Assembly (NCBI GenBank): GCA_023261545.1
Contig: JAHFOS010000004.1
Coordinates: 1 to 63,865 of the forward strand
Source: a bacterium
GTDB lineage: Bacteria > Planctomycetota > JADGBV01
DNA: 63,865 nucleotides
Direction of reading: 5' to 3'
In this document: positions 6,365-53,622 of the stretch, piece after piece
Numbering within the stretch: position 1 is the first letter of the stretch
Layout: each line of letters starts with the position of its first letter
The notes under the pieces: model-generated
Told to the model about the DNA's origin: nothing
The model's database searches: none
Seen by the model: only the letters and a program-made list of their open reading frames with translations
Translations under genes and position numbers: made by a program

Positions 6365-6395
6365 TCGGGCCCGGGTCGTTTTTCAGGAGTTTTTC

Positions 6396-7109: not shown

Positions 7110-7113
7110 GCTG

Positions 7114-8934: not shown

Positions 8935-8935
8935 A

Positions 8936-9538
8936 ATGTCGGTGGAGATACCCTACATCAGCACCCCCCGTCCCGACACCGGGCTCACCAACGCCAAACT
9001 CGGTATTTGGTTGTTCCTGGCCTCCGAGGTCATGCTCTTTGGTGGTCTTTTTTCCTCCTACATTATTCTGCGGCTCAATGCCGGCAGTCCTCAATGGAGG
9101 ACATGGACGAGCATCCTGAACGTGGAAATGGCCACCCTCAACACCTTCGTGCTCATCGCCTCCAGCATCACGGTGGTCATGGCCTGGGCCTCGCTGGTAC
9201 GCCATCAATTCTCCAAGTTCCGCCTCTACATGGTGCTGACGCTGCTTTGCGGCTGCGCCTTCCTGGTGGTCAAATACTTCGAATATACCCACAAGTTCCA
9301 TGAAAATCTTTTTCCAGCCACCAACCCCTTTCTGGCGGTGTATTTCACGCTCACGGGGCTGCATGGGGTGCACGTCGTGGGTGGCATGTTGACGCTCGCT
9401 TACCTGGCTTGGCCTGGCAGCGGCATGTGGCACAAGGATCCCACCCGCTTTACGGGCCGCGTGGAGTGCGCCGGGCTGTTCTGGCACCTGGTGGATCTCG
9501 TGTGGATCTTCCTCTTTCCCGTCCTTTACCTGATGTGA
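8936..9538 (+). CDS. ctaE: Cytochrome c oxidase subunit III
   Basis: ATG 8936 lies 1 nt after the ctaD stop. Motifs: LGIWLFLASEVMLFGGLFSSY, YFTLTGLHGVHVVGG and a C-terminal WHLVDLVWIFLFPVLYL. Confidence 0.9.
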   Translation: MSVEIPYISTPRPDTGLTNAKLGIWLFLASEVMLFGGLFSSYIILRLNAGSPQWRTWTSILNVEMATLNTFVLIASSITVVMAWASLVRHQFSKFRLYMVLTLLCGCAFLVVKYFEYTHKFHENLFPATNPFLAVYFTLTGLHGVHVVGGMLTLAYLAWPGSGMWHKDPTRFTGRVECAGLFWHLVDLVWIFLFPVLYLM

Positions 9539-19478: not shown

Positions 19479-19504
19479 TCTGTGTTATTCTGTGTTCTCT
19501 GTGG
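19479..19504 (+). repeat. Short tandem direct repeats TCTGTGTT-at-TCTGTGTT-ct-CTGTGG immediately upstream of the putA start. Possible operator or leader element.
   Basis: Read directly from the sequence 17-42 nt upstream of ATG 19521, inside an AT-rich divergent intergenic region. Confidence 0.3.
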
Positions 19505-19520
19505 ACAATTCCCCCGGAGC

Positions 19521-25400: not shown

Positions 25401-25900
25401 AGCTCGGGCTCACGCAGAACCAGAATCCCCTCCAGGGCAGCCATTTCATCGAACAGCTCACGGACCTGGTGGAGGAAGCGGTGCTGCGCGAGTTCGAGGC
25501 CCTGGACGCGCGCGGGGGCGCGCTCGGCGCCATGGAGACGCATTACCAGCGCAGCCGCATTCAGGAGGAGTCGCTGGCCTACGAGCAGAAGAAGATGAAC
25601 GGGGAACTGCCCATCGTGGGCGTCAATACTTTCCTCCCGGTCGGCGGAACCGGCGTCCCGCGCCACGTCGAACTCCGGCGCTCCTCCGCCGCGGAGAAAC
25701 GCGCGCAAATCGCCGAAGTGCGGCGCTTGCGCCAACTCTTCGCCCCCGAGCGCGCGGCGGCCCTGGCCCAGCTCACGCGCGCCGCGCGGGCGGGCGGAAA
25801 CGTGTTCGCCGAACTCATGGACGCCTGCCCTTACGGCACCCTCGGCGACCTCGCCGCCGCGCTGCACGGCGCCGGCGGCAGTTACCGGAGGAACATGTGA
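22487..25900 (+). CDS. icmF: Fused isobutyryl-CoA mutase: B12-binding domain, MeaB-like G-protein and mutase substrate-binding domain
   Basis: The N-terminus has the B12 motif FDGHDAAINV...GHNRS. The middle has the P-loop GPGGAGKSS and NKFD. The C-terminal ~600 aa is a methylmalonyl-CoA-mutase-like barrel. The ATGA overlaps the putA stop. Confidence 0.9.
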   Translation: MKRRTPPPVRVLTAAALFDGHDAAINVIRRVLQGCGAEVIHLGHNRSVEEIARAAVEEDVAAVAISSYQGGHMEFFRYLVATLRGLGAGDIKVFGGGGGVIVPTEARRLERLGVTRIYTPEDGTRLGLKGIVEHMLGICRQAQRRLPQRLPENLGIGNRLALGRLVSVLEAGPAPLRARLRKSLAQRLKEKRPAPVVAFTGPGGAGKSSLVDELLLRLLQLFPELRVGVVSVDPTLPGVGGALLGDRIRLNTAGNDRVFVRSLATRQRHVSLSIATRDALDLLRAAAFDLVLLETAGIGQADARARDLADLAVYVMTPEFGAPSQLEKIAMLGCADLIALNKFDRPGALDALREVRRAVQRARGRFADKAEDMPVYGTCAQRCADPGVNSFCNALLARVREVAPHPENFAAALLTEGAPDTDPLIPPLRRHHLAEVAAAVRGHKQRARAEAEIARRAGGLYAALVAAGDTPPELPEFYGTAALAGGAVPGLLELRRAYNKALEELGAEGARLIVAHAELATAYAGPQNTYTVRGREIKVENQAHTLSGLAIARVAVPALADWGARILYQRLENAPGRFPYTAGVYEYKREEEEPTRMFAGEGGPERTNARFHFICRGGKTARLSTAFDSVTLYGHDPDIRPDIYGKIGNSGVSVCSLDDMKRLYSGFDLAAPQTSVSMTINGPAPMLLAWFLTTAVDAAVERRIKVAGRLAHTRQRVAAWFRARAAVPPRYRGPLPEGHDGSGLLFLGVPARIIVEPQLYNEVRREVLSSVRGTVQADILKEDQAQNTCIFSTEFALRLMGDVQQWFLDHGVRNFYSVSISGYHIAEAGANPVSQLAFTLANAFTYAEVYRQRGMDFNRFAPNFSFFFSNGTDAEYAVLARVARRIWALAARALYGADERSAKLKCHIQTSGRSLHSQEMQFNDTRTTLQALYAIADNCNSLHTNAYDEAVTTPTEESVRRAIAIQLIVLRELGLTQNQNPLQGSHFIEQLTDLVEEAVLREFEALDARGGALGAMETHYQRSRIQEESLAYEQKKMNGELPIVGVNTFLPVGGTGVPRHVELRRSSAAEKRAQIAEVRRLRQLFAPERAAALAQLTRAARAGGNVFAELMDACPYGTLGDLAAALHGAGGSYRRNM

Positions 25901-41059: not shown

Positions 41060-41812
41060 ATGGAAAAGCGCTTCGAAAAACAGACGGCGGTGATCACGGG
41101 GGGAGCGGACGGGCTCGGCAAGAGCATCGCGCTCCAGCTCGCGCGCGAGGGCGCGCGCGTGTTCCTCTTCGACATGAATCGCGGCACCCTGGACAAGGCC
41201 TGCGCGGATTTCGCCCACGCGGGACTCAAGGCCGAAGGTGTGGAGGTGGATATCTCCGATGAGGGTTCGGTGCGCCGCGGTTTTGACAAGGTGGCCGTGG
41301 GGGGCAGCCTCGAAGTGGTGGTGAACTCGGCCGGCATTGTGGGACCGAACGGCAAAAAAATCGTGGACGTCCCCGTGGAAGGCTTCGACAAAGTGGTTGC
41401 CGTGAACCTGCGCGGGTCCTTCCTCGTCGCCCAGAACGCGCTGCGGCTGATGGCGCCCAAAAATTACGGTCGCATCCTGCTCATCGCCTCCATCGCCGGC
41501 AAGGAGGGCAATGCCGGCATGTGCTCCTACTCCGCCAGCAAGGCGGGCGTCATCGGTCTGGTCAAGGCCATCGGCAAGGAGTACGCCGAGACGGGCATCA
41601 CCATCAATGCTCTCGCCCCGGCCGTTATACGCACGGCCCTGGTGGACGGCATGGACCCGGCGCAGGTGAAGTACATGACCGACAAGATCCCCATGAAGCG
41701 CTGCGGCACCTTGGAGGAAGTAGCGGCCCTGTCTTGTTTCATCGTCTCGCGCGAGGCGAGCTTTTCCACCGCTTTCACCTTCGATATCTCCGGCGGCCGC
41801 GCGGTTTACTGA
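41060..41812 (+). CDS. Short-chain dehydrogenase/reductase (FabG-like SDR)
   Basis: Cofactor motif TGGADGLGKS, NSAG, and the catalytic YSASKAG (YxxxK). Confidence 0.9.
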   Translation: MEKRFEKQTAVITGGADGLGKSIALQLAREGARVFLFDMNRGTLDKACADFAHAGLKAEGVEVDISDEGSVRRGFDKVAVGGSLEVVVNSAGIVGPNGKKIVDVPVEGFDKVVAVNLRGSFLVAQNALRLMAPKNYGRILLIASIAGKEGNAGMCSYSASKAGVIGLVKAIGKEYAETGITINALAPAVIRTALVDGMDPAQVKYMTDKIPMKRCGTLEEVAALSCFIVSREASFSTAFTFDISGGRAVY

Positions 41813-41876: not shown

Positions 41877-42785
41877 TCAGGCGGCGCTGATTTTCGCCGA
41901 ATTGCGCAGACGGGTCAACGAGGAGGCCGCGCTCCAGGCGATAGCAAAAATAGCCAGCACGCCGGCGGCACCGGCAAGACTGGTGGCGAGCGCCGCGTTT
42001 TTGACGCCTGGGAACAGGTAGTCCGGAGCCAGCCCCGCGAAATGAGGGGCGGTTGACTTGTAAAAGGCGTAGGGCCGAGCTACCCATTCCAGGCCGTCCG
42101 GCAGGCGGCTGGAAAACGGAGCGATCAAGAGGCCGATAAGCAACGCGGAGAGGCCCACCAGCGCGGGCCTTAAGTTTTTCTCGCGCAGAGTTTCGTCGCG
42201 CCGATTCCAGACCCAATACACCACGACCGTCAACACCGCTTCGCCCAAACCGATCAGCGCGTGAACGCCAAGCATGGCCGGCAGCACTTGGGCCCATGTC
42301 ACGGTTCCAGCCATCGCCAGTTCAGCGCTGCAAGCCGCGGCGCCGATCAGCACGCAGCACCACGCGATACCGGCCAGATCCAGCAGCCTTCTGGCGGTGC
42401 ATCGTTCCCAGAGCAAGCCCCCCACGCCGGCGCCCAGGATGGCCATGTTCAGGAGGTTCGCCCCTAGCACGGACAGCCCGCCATCCGCAAAAATCAGACA
42501 CTGCACGGTGACCACGAGCGACATGGCCAGTACGCCCAACGGAGTCCCGAGCAGGGCCGAGGCCAGGACGCCACCCAAAAGATGCCCGGAAGTACCGCCG
42601 CTGATGGGAAAGTTCACCAGTTGGCCGGCGAAAATCAGAGCTGAAACCGCGCCGCACTTCGCGGCGGAGGGCAGGGGCTGACGAACTCGCAGGGCGGCAA
42701 CGGCCGCCGTGGCTACTCCCACGGCGCTGAGCATGGCCGTGACGGGGCAAACGGCGCCGTGGAGCATTTCATCCGGTAGGTGCAT
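41877..42785 (-). CDS. CbiM/NikM-type ECF-transporter metal-capture (S) component fused to a C-terminal PDGLE domain
   Basis: ATG 42785 gives the family-typical N-terminus MHLPDEML; in CbiM/NikM, Met1-His2 bind the metal. Motifs include NFPISGGTSGHLLGG, with LPDGLEWV near the C-terminus. The 512-aa track ORF extends upstream into the NrfD gene in another frame. Confidence 0.8.
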   Translation of the reverse strand: MHLPDEMLHGAVCPVTAMLSAVGVATAAVAALRVRQPLPSAAKCGAVSALIFAGQLVNFPISGGTSGHLLGGVLASALLGTPLGVLAMSLVVTVQCLIFADGGLSVLGANLLNMAILGAGVGGLLWERCTARRLLDLAGIAWCCVLIGAAACSAELAMAGTVTWAQVLPAMLGVHALIGLGEAVLTVVVYWVWNRRDETLREKNLRPALVGLSALLIGLLIAPFSSRLPDGLEWVARPYAFYKSTAPHFAGLAPDYLFPGVKNAALATSLAGAAGVLAIFAIAWSAASSLTRLRNSAKISAA

Positions 42786-42856
42786 GGAAAAAATCCTGAA
42801 TAAAGGCCAGAACGCGGAGAGATTCTGAGCGCATGGCGACAAGGGCAAGTACGCGC

Positions 42857-44392
42857 TCACTTCATCGGCCCTGGAACGATCTCGTAAATAGCCGCCGCTG
42901 AGAAACTCAGCATGATCCCGACGATGAAGATAACGGGGCTGAACGGTACCACCGGATCCAGAAAGGGCTGGGTGCCGTAGCGCGCCGAAAAAACGAGTCC
43001 GCCAACGGTCAACGCCAAACCCAACAACAGGGTCATCGCAAATATGCTTAGGCGCAGCGCGTGCCGGCGGTGGGATTCCACGGGTTCGACGGCTTGGGAA
43101 GCCGGTGTTTTCCGATCCAGCGGGATGATGGGAAATATTTTGACGAAGACTAGGAACATGAGCACACCGAACGCCGTCAGTGCTGCCGTAACGGAGATTT
43201 CCGTCACGCTGATGCGATAGGTTCCTTCGGGGTAAGGAAGCAGCAGACCATGAGTTTGGGAAGGAACGACGATGAGCAGGCGTTTGAGCAAGGCCGCTAC
43301 CTGAACCGTTGCTCCACAGAACATGCTCAAGGCGATGGACTGGAAACCTGTGATGCCCATGACGAGCAGGATGAACATGGGAACGACCAGGGTGATCACG
43401 ACGGTCCAGAACCATCCCGCGTAATGTCCCGACACGATTTCATGAGCCACGTGGGTTTCCAGGGTGGACGAGGCGTAGTTGGCGGTCAGTTCTTCCACCA
43501 CCATGAAATAGAGGTAAACCAGGATAAGGACCCACAGCATGTTGCCGAGCCAGCGGATGGCTTCCGGGCGGATCTGATTTTCCAAGTGCAGGACTTTCCG
43601 GATGAGGCCGGCCACCACGATGAGGGCTCCGATGCCGGAAACCCCCGCCATGACGACGAACCCCGGCGCCTGCAACGCGCTGAACCAACCGGGCCGACCG
43701 CCTTGGATGCCGAAAATGAATCCCAGCGTGGAGTGCGCCGTCACCAGGACCGGCAGGATGAAAATGGACAACCAGAAGCTGGTGCGCTGATGCCGCTCCG
43801 ACTCATCCCGTGTGCCCGTGTAGCCCGCGGCCCAGAGGCGATAGAACCATTTCAAGGAACCGCGTGCGTGATCGCGCATCCAGCCGGCGTCGGAACGACC
43901 CGCCAGGAAAAAGAACACCAGGCTTGAAAAGAAGTAGCCCGCAACCACCAGCGTGAACGTCCCGAAAAAAGGCGAATGGGGGCGGGCGACGCGGGGTAAG
44001 CTGAAAAGGCCATGGAAGGGCCGCCCAAGATCGGCGAGGACGACGAGCGCTCCGAGCGGCAGCGTCACGAGGGTCAGGAGTTCAGCGATGCGTGTCAACG
44101 GTCGCAGATCGGCGATAGCGAGCAACCGCACGAGGGCCGCGACCGCGATACCGGCGAAGCTGACGCCGATGAAGTAGACATCGAAGGCGATATAAAGGCC
44201 CCAAGCGGCACCGCCCTGGCCGATCGTGCGCATCCCGGTAACGATCAAACCGTGCAGGATCTGCTGTAGGAACCCATAGATCCCCCATGAAAGGACGGCC
44301 AGAAGGATGATCCCCGCGATCCAGAAACCTGGACCGCATTTCCCCACGCCTTGGGGCAAGGGAGACGCCGGCTCGCTGGTTGCGTCAGTCAT
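42857..44392 (-). CDS. NrfD/PsrC-family quinone-interacting integral membrane subunit, large (ActC/QrcD-like, 511 aa)
   Basis: At least 10 hydrophobic helices by eye. Its length is far above PsrC/NrfD (~300 aa) and close to ACIII ActC/ActF. It lies directly downstream of the FeS subunit (15-nt gap). Confidence 0.85.
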   Translation of the reverse strand: MTDATSEPASPLPQGVGKCGPGFWIAGIILLAVLSWGIYGFLQQILHGLIVTGMRTIGQGGAAWGLYIAFDVYFIGVSFAGIAVAALVRLLAIADLRPLTRIAELLTLVTLPLGALVVLADLGRPFHGLFSLPRVARPHSPFFGTFTLVVAGYFFSSLVFFFLAGRSDAGWMRDHARGSLKWFYRLWAAGYTGTRDESERHQRTSFWLSIFILPVLVTAHSTLGFIFGIQGGRPGWFSALQAPGFVVMAGVSGIGALIVVAGLIRKVLHLENQIRPEAIRWLGNMLWVLILVYLYFMVVEELTANYASSTLETHVAHEIVSGHYAGWFWTVVITLVVPMFILLVMGITGFQSIALSMFCGATVQVAALLKRLLIVVPSQTHGLLLPYPEGTYRISVTEISVTAALTAFGVLMFLVFVKIFPIIPLDRKTPASQAVEPVESHRRHALRLSIFAMTLLLGLALTVGGLVFSARYGTQPFLDPVVPFSPVIFIVGIMLSFSAAAIYEIVPGPMK

Positions 44393-44407
44393 AACGCTCC
44401 CCCTTTT

Positions 44408-45262
44408 TCATCCTTCGTCAATGATCTGGTTGCGGCTCAGGTAATAGACGCTGGGCTCGGTCCCCAGGTGGCTCAGCAGGGTGAAGGCCCTGGAGCTTTT
44501 GGATAGTTTCGCGGCGAGGCTTTGCGGATCGTTCAGATCGCCGAAGACGATCGCCTTGGGCGGGCAGGATTGGGCGCAGGCCGGCAGGTAGCGGATATCC
44601 TCGTCTCCGGGGGGTTGGCCCGTCACTTTCGCTTTTTCGTTCATGGAGCGGATACGGTGATAACAAAACGTGCACTTTTCCACGACCCCCTTGGGACGGG
44701 TGGCGACGTCCGGGTTTAGGTAATTCTTGTAACTGTCCGGCCATTGCGGAGGGGCCCAGTTGAAGGAGCGCCTGGAATAAGGGCAGGCGGTCATGCAATA
44801 ACGGCAACCGATGCAGCGGTCCCATATCTGAACGGTGAGGCCCTCCTCGTTTTTGTAGGTGGCGCCCACGGGGCAGACCTTGACGCAGGGAGCGTTGCCA
44901 CAGTGCATACAGGGCATAGGCAGCATGTCCGCGCGCCTGTGGACGGTGCTGTCGCCCGGGCCGGGCAACAGGGACATCCATTCGATCTCGGTGCCTTGAT
45001 GGGTTTCGTCGTTTCCGGTCATGGGAACATTGTTTTCCACTTTGCACGCCACGGAGCAGGCGCCGCATCCCGTACACAAGTCGAGGTCAATCACCATTCC
45101 CCAGTGCCGCGGCCTTTTTATCGCGGCGAGCGCGGGTGGAACGGGGGCTGTCACGGCGGGAAAGGCTTTCGCGGCATAACCCAGAACCGTCCCCACCGCG
45201 AGAGCCAGGGCCTTGGCGAAACGCTTTCGAGTCCAGAGGGAATTTTCCACGCCGGAGGTCAT
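44408..45262 (-). CDS. 4x[4Fe-4S] ferredoxin-type subunit (PsrB/HybA/ActB2/QrcC-like) with an N-terminal Tat-like/anchor segment
   Basis: Cys clusters: CTGCGACSVAC, CMHCGNAPCVKVCP, CIGCRYCMTACP, CTFC...CAQSCP. The N-terminus is WTRKRFAKALALAV. ATGA overlap with the upstream stop. Confidence 0.9.
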   Translation of the reverse strand: MTSGVENSLWTRKRFAKALALAVGTVLGYAAKAFPAVTAPVPPALAAIKRPRHWGMVIDLDLCTGCGACSVACKVENNVPMTGNDETHQGTEIEWMSLLPGPGDSTVHRRADMLPMPCMHCGNAPCVKVCPVGATYKNEEGLTVQIWDRCIGCRYCMTACPYSRRSFNWAPPQWPDSYKNYLNPDVATRPKGVVEKCTFCYHRIRSMNEKAKVTGQPPGDEDIRYLPACAQSCPPKAIVFGDLNDPQSLAAKLSKSSRAFTLLSHLGTEPSVYYLSRNQIIDEG

Positions 45263-47661
45263 GACGCTATCCCGTTGATCCGGACCCGGGTTTCCATGAT
45301 CGGCAAGATCCCCGTGGCGCGGGAGTCTGGTGCCACCAGATCCAAGACGTTTCCGCCCCATCCTTTGGCGAACCTCCCGTAGGCCGTGTGTCCGCCACCC
45401 TGGGCCACGACGATTTCACCCGGAGAAATTTTTTCGCTGAGGATCAGGAAAACACGGATCTTCCCGTGCGGGCTCTCCAGTTCCACGGGCCGTGGACCGG
45501 CGACGCCTTGGTTCAGATCCGCAGCGGGATGGATCCAGGCCAGGGTTTCCCAGCGGGGCAGACCGGGTTCCCAGGCCATATCTTGCAACAGGGGAAGGTT
45601 GGCCCCGCTGCCCTCGGCATAGGTATTCCTGCGATAGGGATGTAGGAGCAGGGGAAACTTATCGGTGGCGCCCTGAGCACTTTCGGCCTCGTGTCTTGGC
45701 AGACACCATGCGTCGGGGGAAGCGGCGAACCCCCACCCGTCGAGCACGGCTCGCGGACTCAGGTTCCGCGTCTTCCCACGCAGATCCAGCAGTTCCTTGA
45801 GCCGCAGGGAGTAGAATTCGAACTTCCCGCTGGGAGTGTGGAACCGCGGGGATTCCCCGGCAGCAGGCGCGTCGCTCCAATGACCGGTGGCGAACAGTTT
45901 CTTCAAGAACTTTTTTCCGCTTTTTTCCTGTATCGAACCCTTTCCGGATTCGTGCAATCCCAGCGCGCATTCGCTCAAAGCGCTCTTGAAGTCCTGCCAG
46001 GGAAAATTTTTGGCGATCTCTCCGCCCCACTGGCGCGCCAGTTGGATGATGACGTCGCCCGTTGCCCGCGTATCGTACAAGGGCTCCACGACCGGTTGGC
46101 GGATACCGAATACGGGGAAACCCAGGCTGGGGGATGGCGCGGAGTCCTCCCAGCGCTCGAGATAAGTGTGGTCTGGAAGCACGAGGTCCGCCGCGAACGT
46201 GGCGGTTTCATCCGCGAAGGGGCTGAAACTCACGATGAAAGGCACCTTTTGCAGGGCCTCGCGCCAGGTGGCGGGATGGGCCCGCGAATACAAGGGGTTG
46301 CTGTAATAAAGCAACAGGGTGTCGAGTGCGTCCTGCTTCCTTTCAAGCAGCAGGCCGGGGAGGCGATCCAGTTCATTCTTGAAGAAATAATCCACGCTAT
46401 TCCCGCCGAGTGCAACCGGGTTTTGCAATTTCTCCCTGGCGATTCCGTCCAACTGGATCTCCGGCCAGGAATGGACGGGCGCGGGCACCTGTCGCAGGAT
46501 CCCTCCCGGCCTGCCCATGGACCCCAGGAGCGCGTTGAGCGCGTGGACGGCAAGTGCCGTCGGCAGGCCGTTTGAGCTGAATTGCTCCTGGGTGTTCATC
46601 AGGACGATGGCGGGCCGCCGCTGCGCGATCTCCTTGGCGATGCGCCACAGCAGCGGCGCTTCGATCCCGCAGAGTTCGCTCACGAATCCCGGCGTGTAGT
46701 GTTTCAGGATATCCGCGAACCCCGCGTGCGCGACGCCAAGTTCGTCCTTCCAGGCGTTAAATCCAAAGCCGTATTTCTCGACGAATTCCACGTCGTGCCA
46801 ACGTTGATCCACGATGATGCCGGCCAGACCCAGCGCGAAGGCCCCGTAGGTTCCAGGGCTGATCATGATGCTTTCGTCGGAGTGGGACATGGAATGGGGA
46901 AAAGACGACGCCACGTGGACGATCTTGGCGCGGTGCTGCTGGACGGTCGAGGTCCTTGAGAAGTGCGCCATTTGGCAAGACGTGTTGAAGACCTCGGTTC
47001 CCAGGCTCAGGATATACTGGGTGCGAGGCCAATCGTAGGCGGGAAGCTCCGTGGCTCCTTGCATATAGTACACGGCGTTCGCCAAAGCGCCGTTCCGAGA
47101 CGCAAATCCGTCGAAGAAATAGGGGCTGCCGTACACCTGGGCAAAACGCCGCAACAATTCCCGCATCAGACCCCGCTCCCTCCCGCAAAGGATAGCCAAC
47201 TGGTCGGAACGCCCTTCCTCCCTCAGAGCGGCGAGGCGACGGCTCAAAAGTTCCATGGCGGAGTCCCAGCTCACGGGCTCCAATCTACCGGTGAACCTCG
47301 GGCCCTTGCGCAACAACGGCTGCTGAAAGCGGTCGGGATCGTAGAGCGCCTGAAGGCCGGCGAGTCCCCGCGGGCCGATCCCCCCGCGATTGACCGGGCA
47401 CGAGGGATCCCCTTCGATCTTGACAGCTCTGCCCTCCACGACGCGCACGCGGATCCCACAGCCGGCGGAGCATTGGGCGCAGGCGCTGGAAACGATCCGC
47501 TCCTGTCCCCTGACCCATCCTTGCGCCCCAGGGACATCAGGTTTGGGAATGGCAAAGGGATCGCCCGCGTCCCCACAACCGGACAGCCACGTTCCCGCCG
47601 CGGTCAAGCCGCATCCCTTCAAAAAGGTTTTGCGGGAAATGATGCGGTTCGCTGTCGTCAT
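45259..47661 (-). CDS. Molybdopterin-oxidoreductase-family large subunit (PsrA/ActB1/QrcB-like) with an RK-type Tat signal and lipobox-like LSGC
   Basis: The N-terminus is MTTANRIISRKTFLKGCGLTAAGTWLSGCG, followed by CAQCSAGCGIRV (CxxCxxxC). The remaining ~750 aa are of molybdopterin oxidoreductase architecture. ATG 47661 forms an ATGA overlap with the pentahaem gene stop; ATG 47670 and TTG 47679 are alternative starts. Confidence 0.85.
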   Translation of the reverse strand: MTTANRIISRKTFLKGCGLTAAGTWLSGCGDAGDPFAIPKPDVPGAQGWVRGQERIVSSACAQCSAGCGIRVRVVEGRAVKIEGDPSCPVNRGGIGPRGLAGLQALYDPDRFQQPLLRKGPRFTGRLEPVSWDSAMELLSRRLAALREEGRSDQLAILCGRERGLMRELLRRFAQVYGSPYFFDGFASRNGALANAVYYMQGATELPAYDWPRTQYILSLGTEVFNTSCQMAHFSRTSTVQQHRAKIVHVASSFPHSMSHSDESIMISPGTYGAFALGLAGIIVDQRWHDVEFVEKYGFGFNAWKDELGVAHAGFADILKHYTPGFVSELCGIEAPLLWRIAKEIAQRRPAIVLMNTQEQFSSNGLPTALAVHALNALLGSMGRPGGILRQVPAPVHSWPEIQLDGIAREKLQNPVALGGNSVDYFFKNELDRLPGLLLERKQDALDTLLLYYSNPLYSRAHPATWREALQKVPFIVSFSPFADETATFAADLVLPDHTYLERWEDSAPSPSLGFPVFGIRQPVVEPLYDTRATGDVIIQLARQWGGEIAKNFPWQDFKSALSECALGLHESGKGSIQEKSGKKFLKKLFATGHWSDAPAAGESPRFHTPSGKFEFYSLRLKELLDLRGKTRNLSPRAVLDGWGFAASPDAWCLPRHEAESAQGATDKFPLLLHPYRRNTYAEGSGANLPLLQDMAWEPGLPRWETLAWIHPAADLNQGVAGPRPVELESPHGKIRVFLILSEKISPGEIVVAQGGGHTAYGRFAKGWGGNVLDLVAPDSRATGILPIMETRVRINGIAS

Positions 47662-48236
47662 TTGTGACATGTCAGACAATCGTTTTTGGCGTGTCTCGCT
47701 TCATGACAGGCCATGCAGCGGGACATGGTCAATGCTTTGATATCGGAATTCATGGCCGCCTGTTTCTCCTTGCGCATGTCGCGGTGACAATCCCAACAGT
47801 CCATTTTTCCGTCCACCACGTGAGCCCGATGGGAGAAGTACACGTGGCCCGGAAGACGATTCACGGTGATCCACGGGATTTCCATGCCTTTTTTCGCGTA
47901 CTCCCGCACGGCGGCTTCGTCGGGATGCTGACCCTGCGGTTCCGAATGGCAGTCGCGACAATCCTTGAGCTTGGGAAGCGTGGCGTAAGGGCCCGCGGTC
48001 GCGAAACGATGGCAATCCGCGCACTCCATCTTTTCGGCTCTGATGTGGGCCTCGTGATCAAAAGCCAGAGGCTGTCGCACGGCTTCGGAAGGAGCGGTTT
48101 TCAGATGGAAAACCTTCGCGAGGATTCCCCCGTTCGACGGGTTTTCACCAGCAAGACCTTGGTAAACCAGTCCCATTCCCAGAAGCGACAGGCCGGCTGG
48201 CAGCAGCCAGTTAATCAAATATTTACGCATGCCCAC
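47658..48236 (-). CDS. Membrane-anchored pentahaem c-type cytochrome (ACIII ActA-like / NrfB-c3 family)
   Basis: An N-terminal TM/signal anchor is followed by five CXXCH motifs: CADCH, CRDCH, CWDCH, CMACH, CLTCH. The segment PGHVYFSHRAHV is also present. Confidence 0.85.
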   Translation of the reverse strand: MGMRKYLINWLLPAGLSLLGMGLVYQGLAGENPSNGGILAKVFHLKTAPSEAVRQPLAFDHEAHIRAEKMECADCHRFATAGPYATLPKLKDCRDCHSEPQGQHPDEAAVREYAKKGMEIPWITVNRLPGHVYFSHRAHVVDGKMDCWDCHRDMRKEKQAAMNSDIKALTMSRCMACHEARHAKNDCLTCHK

Positions 48237-48321
48237 CCCTCTCGATTCCGCGGTGCATCGCCAGCTGTTCCCAAGGCAGGAGCACTTCGCACCCGCCGGT
48301 TTCGAGCTTGCTGGTGATGCC

Positions 48322-48729
48322 CTAGGGAGCCTTCCCGACCGGCGGATCTTCCCGGCGCTGTGCCAACCATTCGCTCAAGGCTTCGAGTTCCTCCGAGCTT
48401 CCGGCAAAAAGTTTTCTGTGCTTCTTTTTTCCCATTTTGCTCTCCTTGGCTATTTTTTTAGTAAGGAACTTCTGGATCCATGTCGCGTCGTGATCGCGAC
48501 CCACGCCGGAGAGGTCGGGAGGCTCCACCTTGTCGTTTTCCTCTTCCTCAGCCTCATCCCCTTCCTTCTCTTGCACCGCTTCCTCTTTCTTTCCCAGACC
48601 CAAGGCCTTGATGGTGTGGCATTGCTGGCACTTGGAAGCCTCGAAGATCCTGCGGCCCGTCTCCTCTCCGCCGCTAGGCAGAGCAAAGACGGCCATGCCA
48701 CCGGCGATGGCGATGAGGTGCATTTTCAT
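48322..48729 (-). CDS. Secreted monohaem class-I cytochrome c with an acidic insertion
   Basis: Signal peptide MKMHLIAIAGGMAVFALP, a single CQQCH, and an acidic stretch EKEGDEAEEEEND. PPDLSGVG is typical of class I cytochromes. Confidence 0.8.
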   Translation of the reverse strand: MKMHLIAIAGGMAVFALPSGGEETGRRIFEASKCQQCHTIKALGLGKKEEAVQEKEGDEAEEEENDKVEPPDLSGVGRDHDATWIQKFLTKKIAKESKMGKKKHRKLFAGSSEELEALSEWLAQRREDPPVGKAP

Positions 48730-48739
48730 GGCGGCCTTT

Positions 48740-49969
48740 TCAGAACATGACGCGGATGTTGAACTGGTAGTCGTACTTGGATGAGTCGTCGAGGTTAAAG
48801 GTGAGGTGCAGGCTGGGCCGCACGTTCTCCCTGGGGAAGAAGGTCAGCGAAGGCGTGAGCTTCTCCGTCTCGATGCTCGTGTCGTCCGAGTTCACGATGT
48901 CGTACTGCAGGGCCGGGTAGATCTTGGGCAGGCCATCCTTGTCGGTGACCATATAGGCCGTGACGAGGGAGATGCCGTCGAAGTCGTTCGCCGTTGGCGT
49001 GGCGCCCAGTTTCCAGTTGTCGTCCTTCCCCTGGGCGTAGCCGGCCTGGAGGTCAAAGGCGCCGCGGCGCAAGTTGAACTCCACGCTGTTGCGCTGGAAG
49101 TCGTTGTAGGTGGGAAAGGTGGCGATATCCTTGGTGTCCGTGCCCTGGTAGTGCCAGATCGAGACGTTGGAGCCCACCCATTTGGAGCCGCGCGCCTCGG
49201 TGACCTCAAAGCGCAGGCCGCCCCAGTAATGCAGTTCATCGTTGGGATCCGCGGGGGTGCTGCCCGGTCCCGCCCCCAGCCACCAGACCACGGGTCCCTG
49301 GTAGCCGTAATACTGGATTCCCGGCCGCGCCGAGCTCAGATCCACGCTGTCCTCGCCCTTGCCGTTGGCCGATTTCACGGCGTAAACCTCGGCTTTGACG
49401 GGGGGAAGGATGCGCAGGCGGTTGGAATAGCCCCCGTAGTCGCGCGGGCTGATGTTGCCAACATGGAAGTTGACGGCGCTGGAACCCCCGAGGTTGTGGA
49501 AGCCGAGGTGATACCAGTTGAAAAGGGACTTGCCGCTCTCCTGCTCCATCTCGATGAAGATCGAGATGTTTTTGGCGATGGACCCCGCGAAGAAGAGTTG
49601 CAGCCAGTCGGGATTGCCCATGGTGAGCTGGTCGGTTTTCTTCCCCTTCACCGTCAGGCTGTCGCCCTTCAGTCGCAGCGGTGTCACGCTCAGGCGCACG
49701 CCGAAAAAGTCGTCCACGCTGCTGAGGAAGGTCTTGGCATTGATGGCCTTCTTCTTGAGCGTATCGCCGTCGGGCTTCTCGTTGTCCGGGTCCTGGTAGC
49801 CGTTCCTGAGAAAACGCTCGCCATAATAGTTGAGGCGCGGAAAGGCGCTGTGGCAGGTATAGCACGAGGTCTTGTACTTGCGCGCCCACGCCGAGGTGGC
49901 GAAGACGGCGGAGGGAGAGTACGCGAGCGCCGCGAAAAGGGCTATCCGGAAGATGATTTTGCCGTTCAT
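48740..49969 (-). CDS. Candidate fused outer-membrane porin-cytochrome (Cyc2 / Cyt572-like): signal peptide, single N-terminal CXXCH, beta-barrel body
   Basis: Signal peptide is MNGKIIFRIALFAALAYSPSAVFA. The only two Cys residues in the 409-aa protein form CYTCH (nt 49850-49864). The rest is Y/G/N/D/S-rich with an alternating beta-strand pattern and ends ...NIRVMF; a C-terminal Phe is an OMP hallmark. Confidence that this is a CDS is high. The Cyc2-like assignment is inferred from architecture, not from an alignment. Confidence 0.65.
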   Translation of the reverse strand: MNGKIIFRIALFAALAYSPSAVFATSAWARKYKTSCYTCHSAFPRLNYYGERFLRNGYQDPDNEKPDGDTLKKKAINAKTFLSSVDDFFGVRLSVTPLRLKGDSLTVKGKKTDQLTMGNPDWLQLFFAGSIAKNISIFIEMEQESGKSLFNWYHLGFHNLGGSSAVNFHVGNISPRDYGGYSNRLRILPPVKAEVYAVKSANGKGEDSVDLSSARPGIQYYGYQGPVVWWLGAGPGSTPADPNDELHYWGGLRFEVTEARGSKWVGSNVSIWHYQGTDTKDIATFPTYNDFQRNSVEFNLRRGAFDLQAGYAQGKDDNWKLGATPTANDFDGISLVTAYMVTDKDGLPKIYPALQYDIVNSDDTSIETEKLTPSLTFFPRENVRPSLHLTFNLDDSSKYDYQFNIRVMF

Positions 49970-50151
49970 AGAATCACCAAATTGTTGTCAGTTGGAACCA
50001 CCGGGAGCAAAAGCAATGCTCGTGCCAAAAAACGGCGGACGCGCTTAGCCTCCGCTAGACCTCATTTTTTTCGGGTCGTTGCCCCCGTGAAATCGTATTG
50101 ATTTGTCAGGGTCCAAGGCTGGGTGTAAAGAAATTTGCGCAGCATCCGCGC

Positions 50152-50178
50152 CCAAAAACAGCGCGGGCTCCGGCGCGT
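50152..50178 (-). terminator. Possible intrinsic terminator downstream of korB (imperfect GC hairpin followed by a T-run on the minus strand)
   Basis: The plus strand reads AAAAAC-AGCGCGGGCTCCGGCGCG. On the minus strand the GC-rich imperfect hairpin is followed by TGTTTTTGG. The stem contains a bulge. Confidence 0.4.
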
Positions 50179-50194
50179 GCGGTTTGTTTTTTTG

Positions 50195-51775
50195 TCAGCC
50201 ATCCCGGATCTCCCGCGCCGTCGCCTTTTCGTAGATGAACAAGAGCAGCCCCTTGATCGAGATGAGCCGGATGTTTCCGCGTCCGTCGCGTACCAGCAAG
50301 TGGCGGTAGCCTCCCGAGGCCAGGGTATGGAAGGCGAAGGCCACGCTGGAATGGGAGGGCAGCACCTCGGGGGCGGAAGTCATGATGGCGCGCACGCGGG
50401 TGGCGGGCGCGCGCGCGAGCAGGGGCAAGGCCTTCAGGAAAATGTCGCGCTCGGTAAGGATGCCGACGGTTCGCCCCTGCTCCACCACCGGCAGTGATCC
50501 GATGCCGCGCGCGCGCAAGACCGCGAGGGCGGATCGGACCTCGTCCTCAGGGGATACCGTGGCCGGGTGCTCGGAGGAACCGTAGCGATCGAGGATGTTC
50601 TCCAGCGACTCGGAAAAAGCGGCGGAATAGGGGTCGTTGGCGGGCAGGTTTTCGGCGCGCACCTGCTCGGCCATGACGCTTTGCTCTTCGGCGACGGGCG
50701 CTTCGGCCTCCCGCGGCTCGACGAGCCGCGGCTCCGCGGCCTCGCGCACCACCCAACTGCCTTGCGCCAGCAGCGCGCGCAACTCCTCCCGTACCTCGGG
50801 GGCAAAGGCCGGGCCGTGATGTGCCGTTGCCTGGGCCTTTTCCGCCAGCCGCAGTTCGAAAGGCGTGCCGCGATCCCAGCGCCTGAAAACTCCCACGGGC
50901 ACCGGCAGTCCGGGCTGTCCCATTTGGGCGAGCATGTTGGCGTAGGCCGGCTCCGCGCGGGTGGCGTCGTGCACCAGGATTTGGCTGGAATCCACCCCGT
51001 CCCGGCCCAAGCGCACGGCCTCGAGTTTGAAGCCCCGCAGGACGATGCCGCGATCGCGATCCTTGCCAAACAGCAGCGGCTCTCCGTGCTCAAGCATCAG
51101 CAGGCGCTCCTCGCGGTGTTCCCGATCCGTGATTTCCTCGTAGCAGCCGTCATTGAAGGTCACGCAGTTCTGGAGGACCTCGACGAAGGCTGAGCCGCGG
51201 TGATCGGCGGCGGCCTTGAGCACCTGGATCATCTGGCGCGGACTGTTGTCAACCGTGCGCGCGACGAAAGTGCACTCGGCGGCGATGGCGATGCACAGCG
51301 GATTCACCGGGGATTCCAGCGATCCGCCGGGCGAGGTCTTGCTCACCTGGCCCAGCGGCGAGGTGGGGCTGTACTGACCCTTGGTGAGGCCGTAGATGCG
51401 GTTGTTGAACAGGATGATCTTGAGCCCCACGTTGCGGCGCAGCGCGTGCAAAAGGTGATTGCCGCCGATGCTGAGTCCGTCGCCATCCCCGGTGATGACC
51501 CAGACGGAGAGCTCGGGATTGGCCACCTTGACCCCTGTGGCCACCGTCGGCGCGCGCCCGTGGATGGTGTGAAATCCGTAAGTGTTGATGTAATAGGGCA
51601 GGCGGCTCGAACAGCCAATGCCGCTCACCACCGCAAAGCGTTCGCGTGGCAGCCCGGTTTCGGCGAAGACTTTTTGCAGCGAGTTGAGCACGGCGTAATC
51701 TCCGCAGCCCGGGCACCAGCGCACCTCATTGGTGGTGACGAAGTCCCGCTGCGTGAGGTTCGGAAAATGGCTCAT
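50195..51775 (-). CDS. korB: 2-oxoacid:ferredoxin oxidoreductase beta (TPP-binding) subunit with a fused C-terminal CBS-domain pair
   Basis: The N-terminal ~300 aa have WCPGCGDYAVL, GIGCSSR and ITGDGDGLSIGGNH (TPP motif). Residues ~400-520 have two CBS-like repeats (SLPVVEQGRTVGILTERDI and HLLVRDGRGNIRLISIKGLL). ATGA overlap with the korA stop. Confidence 0.9.
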   Translation of the reverse strand: MSHFPNLTQRDFVTTNEVRWCPGCGDYAVLNSLQKVFAETGLPRERFAVVSGIGCSSRLPYYINTYGFHTIHGRAPTVATGVKVANPELSVWVITGDGDGLSIGGNHLLHALRRNVGLKIILFNNRIYGLTKGQYSPTSPLGQVSKTSPGGSLESPVNPLCIAIAAECTFVARTVDNSPRQMIQVLKAAADHRGSAFVEVLQNCVTFNDGCYEEITDREHREERLLMLEHGEPLLFGKDRDRGIVLRGFKLEAVRLGRDGVDSSQILVHDATRAEPAYANMLAQMGQPGLPVPVGVFRRWDRGTPFELRLAEKAQATAHHGPAFAPEVREELRALLAQGSWVVREAAEPRLVEPREAEAPVAEEQSVMAEQVRAENLPANDPYSAAFSESLENILDRYGSSEHPATVSPEDEVRSALAVLRARGIGSLPVVEQGRTVGILTERDIFLKALPLLARAPATRVRAIMTSAPEVLPSHSSVAFAFHTLASGGYRHLLVRDGRGNIRLISIKGLLLFIYEKATAREIRDG

Positions 51776-53622
51776 GCCGTGCGCCTCCCCCGCGAAAGCT
51801 CACGCACGCGCTCGCAAATCTCAACGACGGTGAAAGGCTGACCGCGCACCTTGCTGAGCGGCACCACCTTGCGCAGCAGCCGGTCCTGCAACAGCAGGGC
51901 AAGCTGGCCCAGATTGAGTTCGGGGACCAGGACCGTAGGAAATCGCTCCAGCAACGCCGGCAGGTCCGCGGGCAGAGGCGCGAGCTGGCGCAGGTGCGCC
52001 AAGGCCACGGGCCGGCCTTCGGCGCAAAGCTTTTCTACCGCCGCGGCGATGGCGCCGTAAGTGCTGCCCCAACCGACGATGATGAGGTCCGCCTCCTTAT
52101 CCCCTTCAATGGCGAGCGGAGGCAGGCGCTGCGCGATATTGCGGATCTTGCGCGCCCGCAACTTCACCATGAGCTCGTGGTTGCCGGGATCGTAGCTCAC
52201 CCAGCCTTGTTCGTTCTTTTCGAGACCGCCGATGCGGTGTTCATGCCCCGGCTCTCCTGGCGGGGCCAAGTGTCGCGCCAGGCTCTGGAGATCGCGGCGG
52301 TAGGGCTGGTAGTCCCCATCAGGGACCACGGGCGCGTCACCGCGCTGTGCCAGCAATTCATCAGGATCTGGGATGCGCCAGATCTCGCTGCTGCTCGCCA
52401 AATACCCGTCGCTCAGCACCAGCACCGGCGTGCTCAGGCGCAGCGCCAGCCCGCAGGCCTCGAACACGACGGCGAAGCAGTCCGCCGGGGAGCGCGCGGC
52501 CAGCACGGGCAGCGGCGACTCGCCATGACGGCCAAACAGGGCCATGAGCAGATCGGATTGCTCGGTTTTGGTGGGCAGTCCCGTGCTCGGGCCCGCCCGC
52601 TGCACGTCCACCACCACCAGGGGTAGTTCCGCCATGACCGCCAAACCCAGGAACTCGGCCATCAGGCACAATCCCGGCCCGCTGGTGACGCTGATGCCCA
52701 GAGAACCGGCCCAACTGGCTCCCAGCGCGATCCCGGCGGCGGCCATTTCATCCTCGGCTTGAACCGTTTTCACCGCGGGCGACCCGTTCCTGGCCAGGAG
52801 CTCCAATATTGAGGAGGCCGGCGTGATGGGATACCCTCCGAGCACGATGGATTTGCCATAGATGCGCGCGGCGGCCTGGAATCCCAAGGCGGCGGCCTCA
52901 TTGCCGTTGATCTTGCGGTAATGGCCGGGCCGCGGAGCGGAGCGGGCCACGTTCCGTCGGGGCAGCTTTACGCCGGCCTCGCCGCCGGCACACAAGGCAG
53001 TGCTGTTGGCCAGCGCCACAGCCTCGTCGTTGCGCCACTTGGCCTCGATGCGCCGCAAAACCGGTTCCCGTGGCAGGTCCACCGTGGCCAGGAGCACGCC
53101 TAGGGCGTAGAAATTACGACAGCGCTTTTTTTCGGTCGCACCGAGCGCGCTGTCCGCCAGCGCCAGTAAAGTGCCGGTGGTGATTTGCAGATCCGCGACC
53201 CGGAAGCGCAGACGCAGGTCCGGATCCACCAGAGGATTTTGGGCGTATCCCGCCTTGCGCAGGGAGGACTCGTTGAAGGTGTCGGCATCGGCCATCAGCG
53301 TTCCGCCAGAAGCGAGCTCGCAAAGATGCACGCGCAATGCGGCCGGGTTCATGACCAGGAGGACGTCAGGCCGGTCGCCCGGGGTGAGGGTTCGCCCCGC
53401 TCCGAACTGCAATTGGTATGCGGAAACCCCGGGCAGCGTTCCCTGTGGGGCGCGGATCTCGGCGGGAAAATCAACGAAAGTGCACAGGGCATGGCCGGCC
53501 AGGGCGCAACTCTCTGAAAAGAGTTCTCCCATCATCTGCATGCCATCCCCCGAGTCGCCAGCCAGGCGCACCACCAGCGCGCGCAGCGGCTCGACCTCGC
53601 CATCCGCCCCGTTGCCGTTCAT
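51772..53622 (-). CDS. korA: 2-oxoacid:ferredoxin oxidoreductase alpha subunit (fused gamma+alpha domains)
   Basis: 616 aa. The N-terminal gamma-like domain has LAGDSGDGMQMMG...DFPAEIRAP. The alpha domain has GYPITPASSILE and EDEMAAAGIALGASWAG. Confidence 0.9.
   Translation of the reverse strand: MNGNGADGEVEPLRALVVRLAGDSGDGMQMMGELFSESCALAGHALCTFVDFPAEIRAPQGTLPGVSAYQLQFGAGRTLTPGDRPDVLLVMNPAALRVHLCELASGGTLMADADTFNESSLRKAGYAQNPLVDPDLRLRFRVADLQITTGTLLALADSALGATEKKRCRNFYALGVLLATVDLPREPVLRRIEAKWRNDEAVALANSTALCAGGEAGVKLPRRNVARSAPRPGHYRKINGNEAAALGFQAAARIYGKSIVLGGYPITPASSILELLARNGSPAVKTVQAEDEMAAAGIALGASWAGSLGISVTSGPGLCLMAEFLGLAVMAELPLVVVDVQRAGPSTGLPTKTEQSDLLMALFGRHGESPLPVLAARSPADCFAVVFEACGLALRLSTPVLVLSDGYLASSSEIWRIPDPDELLAQRGDAPVVPDGDYQPYRRDLQSLARHLAPPGEPGHEHRIGGLEKNEQGWVSYDPGNHELMVKLRARKIRNIAQRLPPLAIEGDKEADLIIVGWGSTYGAIAAAVEKLCAEGRPVALAHLRQLAPLPADLPALLERFPTVLVPELNLGQLALLLQDRLLRKVVPLSKVRGQPFTVVEICERVRELSRGRRTA

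Follow-up and report, generated by a model that had tools for sequence, protein, structure and literature searches.

Cyc2 proteins were defined by Keffer et al. (2021, PMC8406198) through a signal peptide, one CXXCH motif, a P-x-L downstream of it, a porin and a minimum of 365 residues, with the block A-x-P-x-F-A-R-[Q/K]-[T/Y] upstream, and all three biochemically studied members of the family are outer-membrane redox proteins. Cyc2 homologues are known in bacteria that do not oxidise iron, including Ignavibacteriaceae, Bacteroidetes, Verrucomicrobia and Planctomycetota (PMC6344600, PMC10732223, PMC9040806). The link from Cyc2 to quinone has so far been inferred only from the genome-wide co-occurrence of cyc2, cyc1 and alternative complex III (ACIII) or bc1 genes in iron oxidisers. 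The Qrc/Act group of inner-membrane modules combines a cofactor-less Mo-bisPGD-like subunit, a penta- or hexahaem cytochrome and an NrfD protein with at least ten helices (Duarte 2018, PMC6303296; PMC8076601). Here we describe a minus-strand operon at 41877-49969 of a 63,865-nucleotide stretch of DNA, hereafter the window, from a member of the Planctomycetota (assembly GCA_023261545.1, contig JAHFOS010000004.1, lineage JADGBV01), in which a divergent Cyc2-type porin-cytochrome and a cytochrome c are joined to a Planctomycetota-type Qrc-like module. A search of open-access papers turned up no earlier account of a cyc2-type gene that shares an operon with a Qrc/ACIII-type module.

The three tiers of the proposed path stand in a compact cassette of six genes, which gives guilt-by-association support to a link between Cyc2-type and NrfD-type proteins and supplies a defined, testable construct. 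We consider it probable that the operon encodes a trans-envelope electron conduit, in whichever direction the electrons pass. The narrower proposal, that the conduit spans the envelope and runs outward from quinol to the outside, in the direction of ACIII, is made tentatively. An earlier reading from the sequence alone (the sequence-only reading) had listed seven co-oriented genes with their junctions and likely products. All seven open reading frames lie on the minus strand, with start codons and junctions confirmed directly on the sequence, and the gene content was borne out by motifs, Pfam, NCBIfam and sequence features. Two independent assemblies that contain this sequence carry identical gene calls (409, 135, 190, 800, 284, 511 and 302 aa).

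A putative divergent branch of the Cyc2 superfamily

Gene 1 (48740-49969, minus strand, 409 aa) encodes a fused monohaem cytochrome-porin. The product begins with the signal peptide MNGKIIFRIALFAALAYSPSAVFA, ending in ..AVFA, after which the sole CXXCH, CYTCH at C36, stands in the order TSAWARKY-KTS-CYTCH-SAF-PRL; the C-terminal end reads ..RVMF. Zero matches were returned by Pfam and NCBIfam. An AlphaFold2 model built from the alignment of homologues (pLDDT 88.4, pTM 0.83) has a short helical haem segment followed by 16 long strands over residues 89-408. Structure prediction had been set beforehand as a test of the porin-cytochrome assignment, and together with a Foldseek comparison it bore the assignment out, the haem segment at the N-terminus being followed by a barrel. 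Against the PDB, the model matched 16-strand general and phosphate porins (OmpU, PorB, OmpF; E 1e-12 to 1e-9), with the highest query TM-score for OprP (2o4v, TMq 0.58), which is the template reported for Cyc2 by Keffer et al. (PMC8406198).

A homologue search with gene 1 returned 171 proteins, all at <=51% identity, from Eisenbacteria, Nitrospinota, Nitrospirota, Aminicenantes, Marinimicrobia, Bacteroidota/Ignavibacteria, Lentisphaerae, Elusimicrobia and Deltaproteobacteria. Across an alignment of 30 homologues, no variation is seen at C36, C39, H40, P44 and R45 and very little at L46, and the family consensus reads A-T-S-Q-W-[S/A]-R-K-Y-x3-C-x-T-C-H-x2-F-P-R-L-N-x-Y-G, with R-T-M-F at the C-terminus. 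When held against the published definition of Cyc2, the protein has the signal peptide and the single CXXCH, exceeds 365 aa with a 16-strand OprO/OprP-like barrel, and has the P-x-L (CYTCH-SAF-PRL). The Pro stands at +4 after CXXCH in gene 1 and at +5 in the peptide of Mariprofundus Cyc2 (PV-1), and relatives show both spacings. The strict upstream motif is absent, the window protein reading A-T-S-A-W-A-R-K-Y, where Ser replaces Pro and Trp replaces Phe.

Homology to canonical Cyc2 was sought by profile comparison. A HMMER profile search of 1.84 billion representatives gave 3,574 proteins at E <=1e-3; the more distant full-length matches carry the canonical block (e.g., AIPAFARKY-xxx-CxxCH-xxx-PxL), and proteins with the strict Cyc2 motif were matched at E 1e-23 to 1e-50. 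With motif-bearing distant representatives as a proxy for reference Cyc2 sequences, hhalign aligned the gene 1 alignment to 23 representatives with canonical or near-canonical motifs at a probability of 100% (E 2e-58) over 378 columns, a match that spans both the barrel and the haem segment. In a motif census, the strict motif occurred in 41 of 122 haem-bearing distant representatives and in 0 of 117 haem-bearing members of the gene 1 subfamily, 84 of which carry S-x-W-[A/S]-R-K-Y instead. The Cyc2 PV-1 peptide QTGAACLSCHFQTFPALNAFGR shares with gene 1 the three-residue spacing before the Cys (seen in its QTGAACLSCH portion) and the F-P-x-L-N-x-[F/Y]-G continuation. A search with a 60-aa stretch of Cyc2 PV-1 rebuilt from mass-spectrometry peptides (Keffer Table S1) found no candidate.

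We conclude, from profile homology and predicted structure, that gene 1 is most probably a member of the Cyc2 superfamily, on a divergent branch, a sizeable subfamily whose sequences do not pass the motif filter as published. Keffer et al. dropped sequences without the motif, so the subfamily is probably absent from their tree. The sequence-only reading had called the protein Cyc2/Cyt572-like; barrel, haem segment and full-length homology uphold this, and the strict motif is wanting, though only a likeness had been claimed.

In comparison with Cyc2 of A. ferrooxidans, Cyt572 of Leptospirillum and Cyc2PV-1 of Mariprofundus ferrooxydans, gene 1 agrees in having a signal peptide, only one CXXCH, located some 12 residues from the mature N-terminus, an [A]-x-x-x-[aromatic]-[A/S]-R-K-Y block separated from the first Cys by three residues, a P-x-L behind the His, a size near 400 aa, an OprP-resembling 16-strand barrel and a small cytochrome c gene directly downstream. 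It differs in reading S-A-W-A-R-K-Y for P-x-F-A-R-[Q/K]-[T/Y], in a subfamily whose hosts are not known iron oxidisers, and in the partners of that subfamily, which include surface octahaem cytochromes of the type IX secretion system (T9SS) and, in the window, a Qrc-like module. The downstream gene, gene 2 (48322-48729, minus strand, 135 aa), begins 10 nt after gene 1 and encodes a secreted class I monohaem cytochrome c (CQQCH; Pfam Cytochrom_C PF00034, 30 bits) without a lipobox, proposed as the periplasmic carrier and a conserved companion of gene 1. By tblastn, a gene 2 homologue lies directly downstream of a gene 1 homologue in 43 loci, and the same position is held by a monohaem cytochrome reading frame in 38 of 77 non-redundant loci.

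A predicted quinone module of the Qrc/ACIII type

The next four genes, all on the minus strand, encode the inner-membrane tier. Gene 3 (47658-48230, 190 aa, from an ATG start, or 47658-48236, 192 aa, from a GTG start) specifies a membrane-anchored pentahaem cytochrome of the ActA/QrcA type, with five CXXCH motifs and one N-terminal hydrophobic anchor segment. Its top NCBIfam model is QrcA, at 113.9 bits below the cut-off of 180, and its best PDB matches are ActA chains of ACIII (8k9e_A, 6f0k_A, 6lod_A; E 6e-19 to 5e-13). Gene 5 (44408-45262, 284 aa) encodes a four-cluster iron-sulphur (FeS) protein of the QrcC/ActB C-terminal type with ferredoxin-type Cys motifs; QrcC is its top NCBIfam model (284 bits, below the cut-off of 400), and its best PDB matches are C-terminal domains of ActB, led by 6f0k_B (4e-60) and followed by 8k9e_B, 6btm_B and 6lod_B. 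Gene 6 (42857-44392, 511 aa) encodes an NrfD-type quinone-interacting membrane subunit (Pfam NrfD PF03916), in which hydropathy predicts about 12 helices, an ActC/QrcD-like core with a two-helix C-terminal extension; the best PDB matches are ActC chains (6lod_C, 6btm_C, 8k9e_C, 6f0k_C; E 7e-15 to 4e-12). A minimal ACIII/Qrc-type module, as the sequence-only reading had it, is what these matches indicate, with genes 3, 5 and 6 matching ACIII best in the PDB and genes 3 to 5 matching QrcA, QrcB and QrcC best in NCBIfam.

Gene 4 (45259-47661, 800 aa) encodes a Mo-bisPGD-family subunit resembling QrcB/ActB, in which an RK Tat-like motif and then an LSGC lipobox at the N-terminus precede the Mo-family domains. 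All of its NCBIfam scores are below the cut-offs, namely QrcB at 256.1 (cut-off 440), PhsA at 252 (694), ArrA at 242 (1600) and TtrA at 49 (1750), and the arsenite oxidase model scores 20 bits. The closest solved relatives are ArrA (6cz7, E 8.5e-62) and PsrA (1e-36). When aligned to them, the column of the Mo-ligand Cys holds Arg in gene 4 and CPRG reads GPRG. In an alignment of gene 4 with 24 homologues (25 sequences in all), the first three FS0 cysteines do not vary, the fourth (in CP[RK]G) is Gly in gene 4 and in 23 of the 24 homologues, and both this Cys and the Mo-ligand Cys are lost in 24 of the 25. The residue in the ligand column varies (R, G, H, A, S and others); gene 4 has another Cys eight positions upstream, but the homologues do not conserve it. 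One of the 24 homologues, P0232 from a Deltaproteobacteria metagenome-assembled genome, is alone in keeping the Mo-ligand Cys and a C-P-K-G FS0 cysteine, so the family may hold catalytic as well as degenerate members.

Catalytic Psr/Phs/Ttr/Arr subunits are recognised by a Cys (or Ser/Asp/Sec) Mo ligand, the pattern C-x2-C-x3-C-x(n)-C-P-[RK]-G and equivalog-level scores, and gene 4 has none of the three. The sequence-only reading had taken intact Mo ligands as the mark of an ordinary reductase, and such ligands are missing here. Without the Cys ligand and the canonical fourth FS0 Cys, an ordinary Psr/Phs/Arr reductase is unlikely, and gene 4 is probably a scaffold without cofactor, as in QrcB/ActB. 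Genes 3 to 6 are accordingly best described, on their predicted features, as a putative Qrc/ACIII-type module fitting the profile of the Qrc/Act group.

Neither known complex is matched in full. As in QrcABCD of sulfate reducers, there are four separate genes in the order cytochrome, Mo-like, FeS and NrfD-type subunit of more than eight helices, with a Tat-type Mo-family subunit that appears to lack a catalytic ligand. Unlike in Qrc, the cytochrome has five haems rather than the six of QrcA, gene 4 retains three FS0 cysteines, gene 6 has about 12 predicted helices, the scores fall short (114/180, 256/440 and 284/400 for genes 3 to 5), and the module adjoins a Cyc2-like protein, not hydrogenase or formate dehydrogenase/TpIc3 systems. 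With ACIII it shares a pentahaem ActA-like cytochrome, a probably cofactor-less Mo-like part and an NrfD protein of the ten-helix group, and gene 2 could fill the role of ActE or of a soluble acceptor. It departs from ACIII in having the Mo-like and FeS parts as separate reading frames instead of a fused ActB, a single NrfD gene, and no ActD, ActE or ActF in the operon, for which reasons genes 3 to 6 are not ACIII. The earlier identification thus holds as a likeness, and not at the level of the NCBIfam Qrc cut-offs or of the ACIII subunit set.

Each half has other partners elsewhere

Loci with gene 1 homologues were collected from 45 species genomes and 80 metagenome contigs (125 loci, 99 of them non-redundant). 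In none of the 125 does a homologue of gene 3 or gene 4 lie beside the gene 1 homologue, which agrees with the earlier view that the arrangement is unusual. A Mo-family/FeS/NrfD module near a Cyc2-like and cytochrome c pair was seen at a single other locus (L103:179-9647), where it lies about 5 kb upstream of the pair, with an opposite-strand response regulator of the sigma-54 type and a histidine kinase between.

Gene 1 homologues do have multihaem partners. Cytochromes with at least three haems occur within 6 kb in 32 of the 99 non-redundant loci, mostly in the same operon. By lineage, the partners of gene 1 homologues include NapC/NirT/NrfH-like membrane cytochromes, a trihaem c7 and, in Nitrospinota, an 11-haem NrfH-DmsE-like protein. 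In Ignavibacteria and Bacteroidota, the Cyc2-like and cytochrome c pair is adjoined by a gene for an octahaem cytochrome (L018:3632-5170, L023:7473-8972, L026:11953-13491, L030:11975-13519, L032:2174-3895 on the minus strand, L033:7706-9553 and L039:7841-9520), often with a histidine kinase/response regulator pair upstream. Seven of eight octahaem partners score above the curated cut-off for a C-terminal T9SS type A sorting domain, from which a cell-surface location is expected. The multi-omics paper on Melioribacter roseus holds no information on its gene 1 homologue. At L047:9440-14926, on a 7-Mb contig (ERZ28763718), a homologue with 46% identity has a monohaem cytochrome c upstream and, directly downstream, genes for a Rieske protein, a cytochrome b, a 431-aa multihaem cytochrome and a NapC/NirT-like protein; here a bc-type complex holds the position of the Qrc-like module of the window.

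The Qrc-like module is likewise found in other company. The closest gene 4 homologues have about 50% identity, and those with an organism name are mostly labelled Planctomycetota, so that the related loci are probably of planctomycete origin. At three of them, the four-gene module stands in the same order beside multihaem cytochromes and ResB/CcsA (cytochrome c maturation), and none of the three has a Cyc2-like gene. One of these loci, reached through a gene 4 homologue (L052:639-12815, on a 6.5-Mb contig), opens with a 578-aa protein that has no family match and ends in the outer-membrane-protein-type C-terminus ..LRLGVTWRF; it continues with QrcA-like, C554-like and c7-like cytochromes and a 700-aa DmsE/GSU2203-like multihaem cytochrome, and then with Mo/FeS/NrfD genes. 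This may be a porin-cytochrome complex wired to a Qrc-like inner-membrane module.

In other genomes, then, each half of the operon is linked to another counterpart that belongs to the corresponding functional tier, which supports a trans-envelope electron path, and we regard this two-way modularity, as read from gene neighbourhoods, as the strongest argument for such a path. The gene 1 subfamily itself appears modular, with different quinol-linked modules in different phyla and surface-exported octahaem cytochromes in Ignavibacteria and Bacteroidota. Most hosts of the subfamily live as organotrophs or anaerobes rather than as lithoautotrophic iron oxidisers. In a collection of 15 billion proteins, PutA of the window was absent as an exact sequence and six of the seven window proteins looked up were singleton clusters at 90% identity, which points to there being no close sequenced relative of the organism in that collection.

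The layout resembles the proposed Cyc2-Cyc1-ACIII/bc1 pathway (PMC5566968) in its outer-membrane cytochrome-porin, periplasmic monohaem cytochrome and inner-membrane NrfD-type complex. That model draws on genome-wide co-occurrence and expression, whereas the tiers in the window share one operon and the module is Qrc-like rather than a six-subunit ACIII. There is also a resemblance to MtrCAB, PioAB/MtoAB-MtoD-CymA and Geobacter Pcc, in which an outer-membrane barrel is connected through a periplasmic cytochrome to an inner-membrane cytochrome linked to quinol; mtoD and cymA are analogous to the gene 2-type and NapC/NirT-like genes beside gene 1 homologues. Unlike these porin-cytochrome complexes, which sheathe a decahaem cytochrome in a 26-strand barrel, gene 1 has 16 strands and one fused haem, and there is no sequence relationship.

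Direction of electron flow

In the outward path, quinol would be oxidised at a periplasm-facing site of the NrfD-type subunit (gene 6), and the electrons would pass through the four FeS clusters of the gene 5 product, held by the cofactor-less, lipid-anchored scaffold of gene 4, and onward along the five haems of the membrane-anchored gene 3 product. From there, they would be handed to the soluble monohaem cytochrome c of gene 2 and then to the one haem of gene 1, N-terminal to its 16-strand outer-membrane barrel. This haem would reduce an oxidant in solution with access to the pore, for example chelated Fe(III), Mn(III) or a quinone-type shuttle. The analysis shows what the parts are and how they are built, their close linkage and the pairing of each half with electron-transfer genes in other genomes; we infer the physical contacts, haem potentials, substrate and direction of flow of this scheme. 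Inner-membrane partners of the bc type, the NapC/NirT type and the ACIII-like type are quinol-oxidising in most organisms. These partner types, the organotrophic and anaerobic hosts, and the surface octahaem partners, which recall those of metal reducers, slightly favour outward flow.

The opposite direction, that of the canonical Cyc2 model, in which gene 1 would oxidise dissolved Fe(II) or possibly Mn(II), gene 2 would carry the electrons, and the Qrc/ACIII-like module would feed them to quinone uphill at the expense of the proton-motive force, is rather unlikely in our estimate, and yet it is the best of the alternatives. A variant adds a second branch, which may run from gene 2 to an aa3-type oxidase at 5.6-9.5 kb of the window. 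The order of genes 1 and 2 mirrors that of the rus operon of Acidithiobacillus, where cyc2 is followed by cyc1, a small cytochrome c gene. Several further points weigh against outward flow or for inward flow. Fe(II) is oxidised by all Cyc2 proteins characterised so far, no outward-working one is known, and Cyc2 PV-1 has a potential of +208 mV (PMC8406198). Class I monohaem cytochromes, like Cyc2 PV-1, are high-potential, which narrows the range of acceptors. The small pore of Cyc2 admits dissolved ions only, according to Keffer et al. (PMC8406198). Qrc itself is a quinone reductase (PMC8076601, PMC6303296), acting on menaquinone, and a Cyc2-Cyc1-ACIII/bc1 route is the standing, co-occurrence-based hypothesis for Zetaproteobacteria and Gallionellaceae (PMC5566968). 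The aa3-type oxidase cluster of the window (SCO1, a cupredoxin-like protein, COX1 and COX3) makes a route from Fe(II) to oxygen conceivable, and korAB genes lie just upstream of the operon. Finally, the gap between genes 2 and 3 could house a promoter. On the other side, uphill flow to quinone suits mainly autotrophs, and the window gives no indication of autotrophy; the gene 1 subfamily is spread over organotrophic and anaerobic lineages; its members in Ignavibacteria and Bacteroidota have T9SS-exported octahaem cytochromes as partners, in the manner of metal reducers; and the operon itself carries a quinone module, not an oxidase.

It is also conceivable, and distinctly improbable, that the operon holds two independent units, with genes 1 and 2 a self-contained redox pair and genes 3 to 6 (perhaps with gene 7) a general periplasmic cytochrome:quinone oxidoreductase, and no dedicated wire between them. 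The pair occurs without a Qrc-like module in all other loci save the distant neighbourhood at L103, just as the module occurs without a gene 1 homologue at the three related loci. The gap between genes 2 and 3 is the longest in the cluster (85 nt with the GTG start of gene 3 at 48236, 91 nt with its ATG start at 48230), and GC content at third codon positions (GC3) differs between gene 1 (0.88), genes 2 and 3 (0.63-0.69) and genes 4 to 7 (0.75). However, all genes share a strand, pattern matching found no terminator-like site in that gap, a pentahaem subunit of the ActA/QrcA type would be expected to exchange electrons with a soluble cytochrome c, and other lineages likewise place a membrane quinol-linked cytochrome module directly after the pair.

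Arsenite oxidase is a Mo enzyme without a protein ligand and with a three-Cys cluster. This precedent, together with the solved relatives ArrA and PsrA, PhsA and ArrA scores nearly equal to that of QrcB, the three invariant FS0 cysteines out of four and the canonical features of P0232, leaves a small residual chance that genes 4 to 6 form a catalytic Psr/Phs/Arr-like reductase or an oxidase of S, As or Se compounds, with the cytochromes feeding or draining it, a reading that we reject as very unlikely on the variable ligand column and the Gly for the CP[RK]G cysteine, on scores far under the equivalog cut-offs, on partners (pentahaem cytochrome, NrfD of at least ten helices) that are those of the cofactor-less Qrc/Act group, and on a negligible similarity to arsenite oxidase.

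Extending the outward reading beyond this operon is more tentative still. The S-x-W-[A/S]-R-K-Y branch, which spans Ignavibacteria, Bacteroidota, Aminicenantes, Nitrospinota, Eisenbacteria, Marinimicrobia and the lineage of the window, might be a general outward gate of the outer membrane, through which quinol electrons reach soluble oxidants or T9SS octahaem cytochromes by way of interchangeable inner-membrane modules and a monohaem carrier. These modules would be Qrc-like here, and NapC/NirT-like, Rieske/cytochrome b or NrfH-fused multihaem elsewhere. If so, Cyc2-type proteins would not be solely iron oxidases, and a single-haem 16-strand porin would be able to pass electrons to cell-surface partners. 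Surveys that equate every Cyc2 match with a potential for iron oxidation would need revision if the subfamily exports electrons.

Operon boundaries, base composition and neighbouring genes

Genes 3 and 4 and genes 4 and 5 are joined by ATGA overlaps (ATG of gene 4 at 47661, of gene 5 at 45262), 15 nt separate genes 5 and 6, and 71 nt separate gene 6 from gene 7; the last gap, too, is free of terminator-like sites by pattern matching. Upstream of gene 1, a 225-nt leader (49970-50194, minus strand) reaches to korB, with terminator-like GC hairpins and T runs at 50178-50137 that are consensus matches only, and the transcription unit likely starts here. At the other end, a terminator-like hairpin (41882-41899, minus strand), also a consensus match only, overlaps the stop of gene 7, and the next gene, SDR/FabG-like, is convergent (41060-41812).

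Gene 7 (41877-42785, minus strand, 302 aa), the last gene, encodes CbiM fused to a PDGLE/CbiN-like domain, a Co/Ni uptake S-component. No CbiM-PDGLE gene of this type lies beside the Qrc-like module at the three related loci, and there is no Rfam element, riboswitches included. We therefore rejected a functional part in the electron path for gene 7, which the sequence-only reading had counted in the operon; without conserved linkage to the module in relatives, it is probably a passenger outside the path.

The locus had also been described as somewhat less GC-rich than other parts, with a hint of lateral acquisition. The first is weakly true, in that gene GC in the operon is 0.56-0.65 against a window mean of 0.635. 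Equally low values occur elsewhere in the window, as in cox1/cox3 (0.57-0.59; cox1 0.588) and the 15-18 kb region (0.556), the GC3 of gene 1 is typical of native genes, and within the operon only genes 2 and 3 are somewhat low in composition. Lateral acquisition was rejected as an inference from composition, since GC and GC3 of the operon are inside the spread of other window genes.

The haem-copper oxidase cluster lies on the plus strand at 5576-9538, with SCO1/SenC at 5576-6364, COX1 at 7114-8934 and COX3 at 8873-9538. Pfam gave no COX2 match in the cluster; the expected position of subunit II is held by a secreted cupredoxin-like protein (6339-7109) with a type-1-copper-like H...C-x2-H-x2-M pattern and a CarboxypepD_reg-like C-terminus. 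The korAB genes (50195-53622, minus strand), which immediately precede the operon, encode a two-subunit 2-oxoacid:acceptor oxidoreductase, the 526-aa beta subunit of which has a C-terminal extension weakly similar to the CBS-containing region of IMP dehydrogenase. The richest part of the window in GC (0.69-0.70) is at 19482-25900 on the plus strand, where the gene for PutA (proline dehydrogenase/P5C dehydrogenase, 1002 aa) precedes that for an IcmF-type fused B12 mutase-MeaB protein of 1137 aa.

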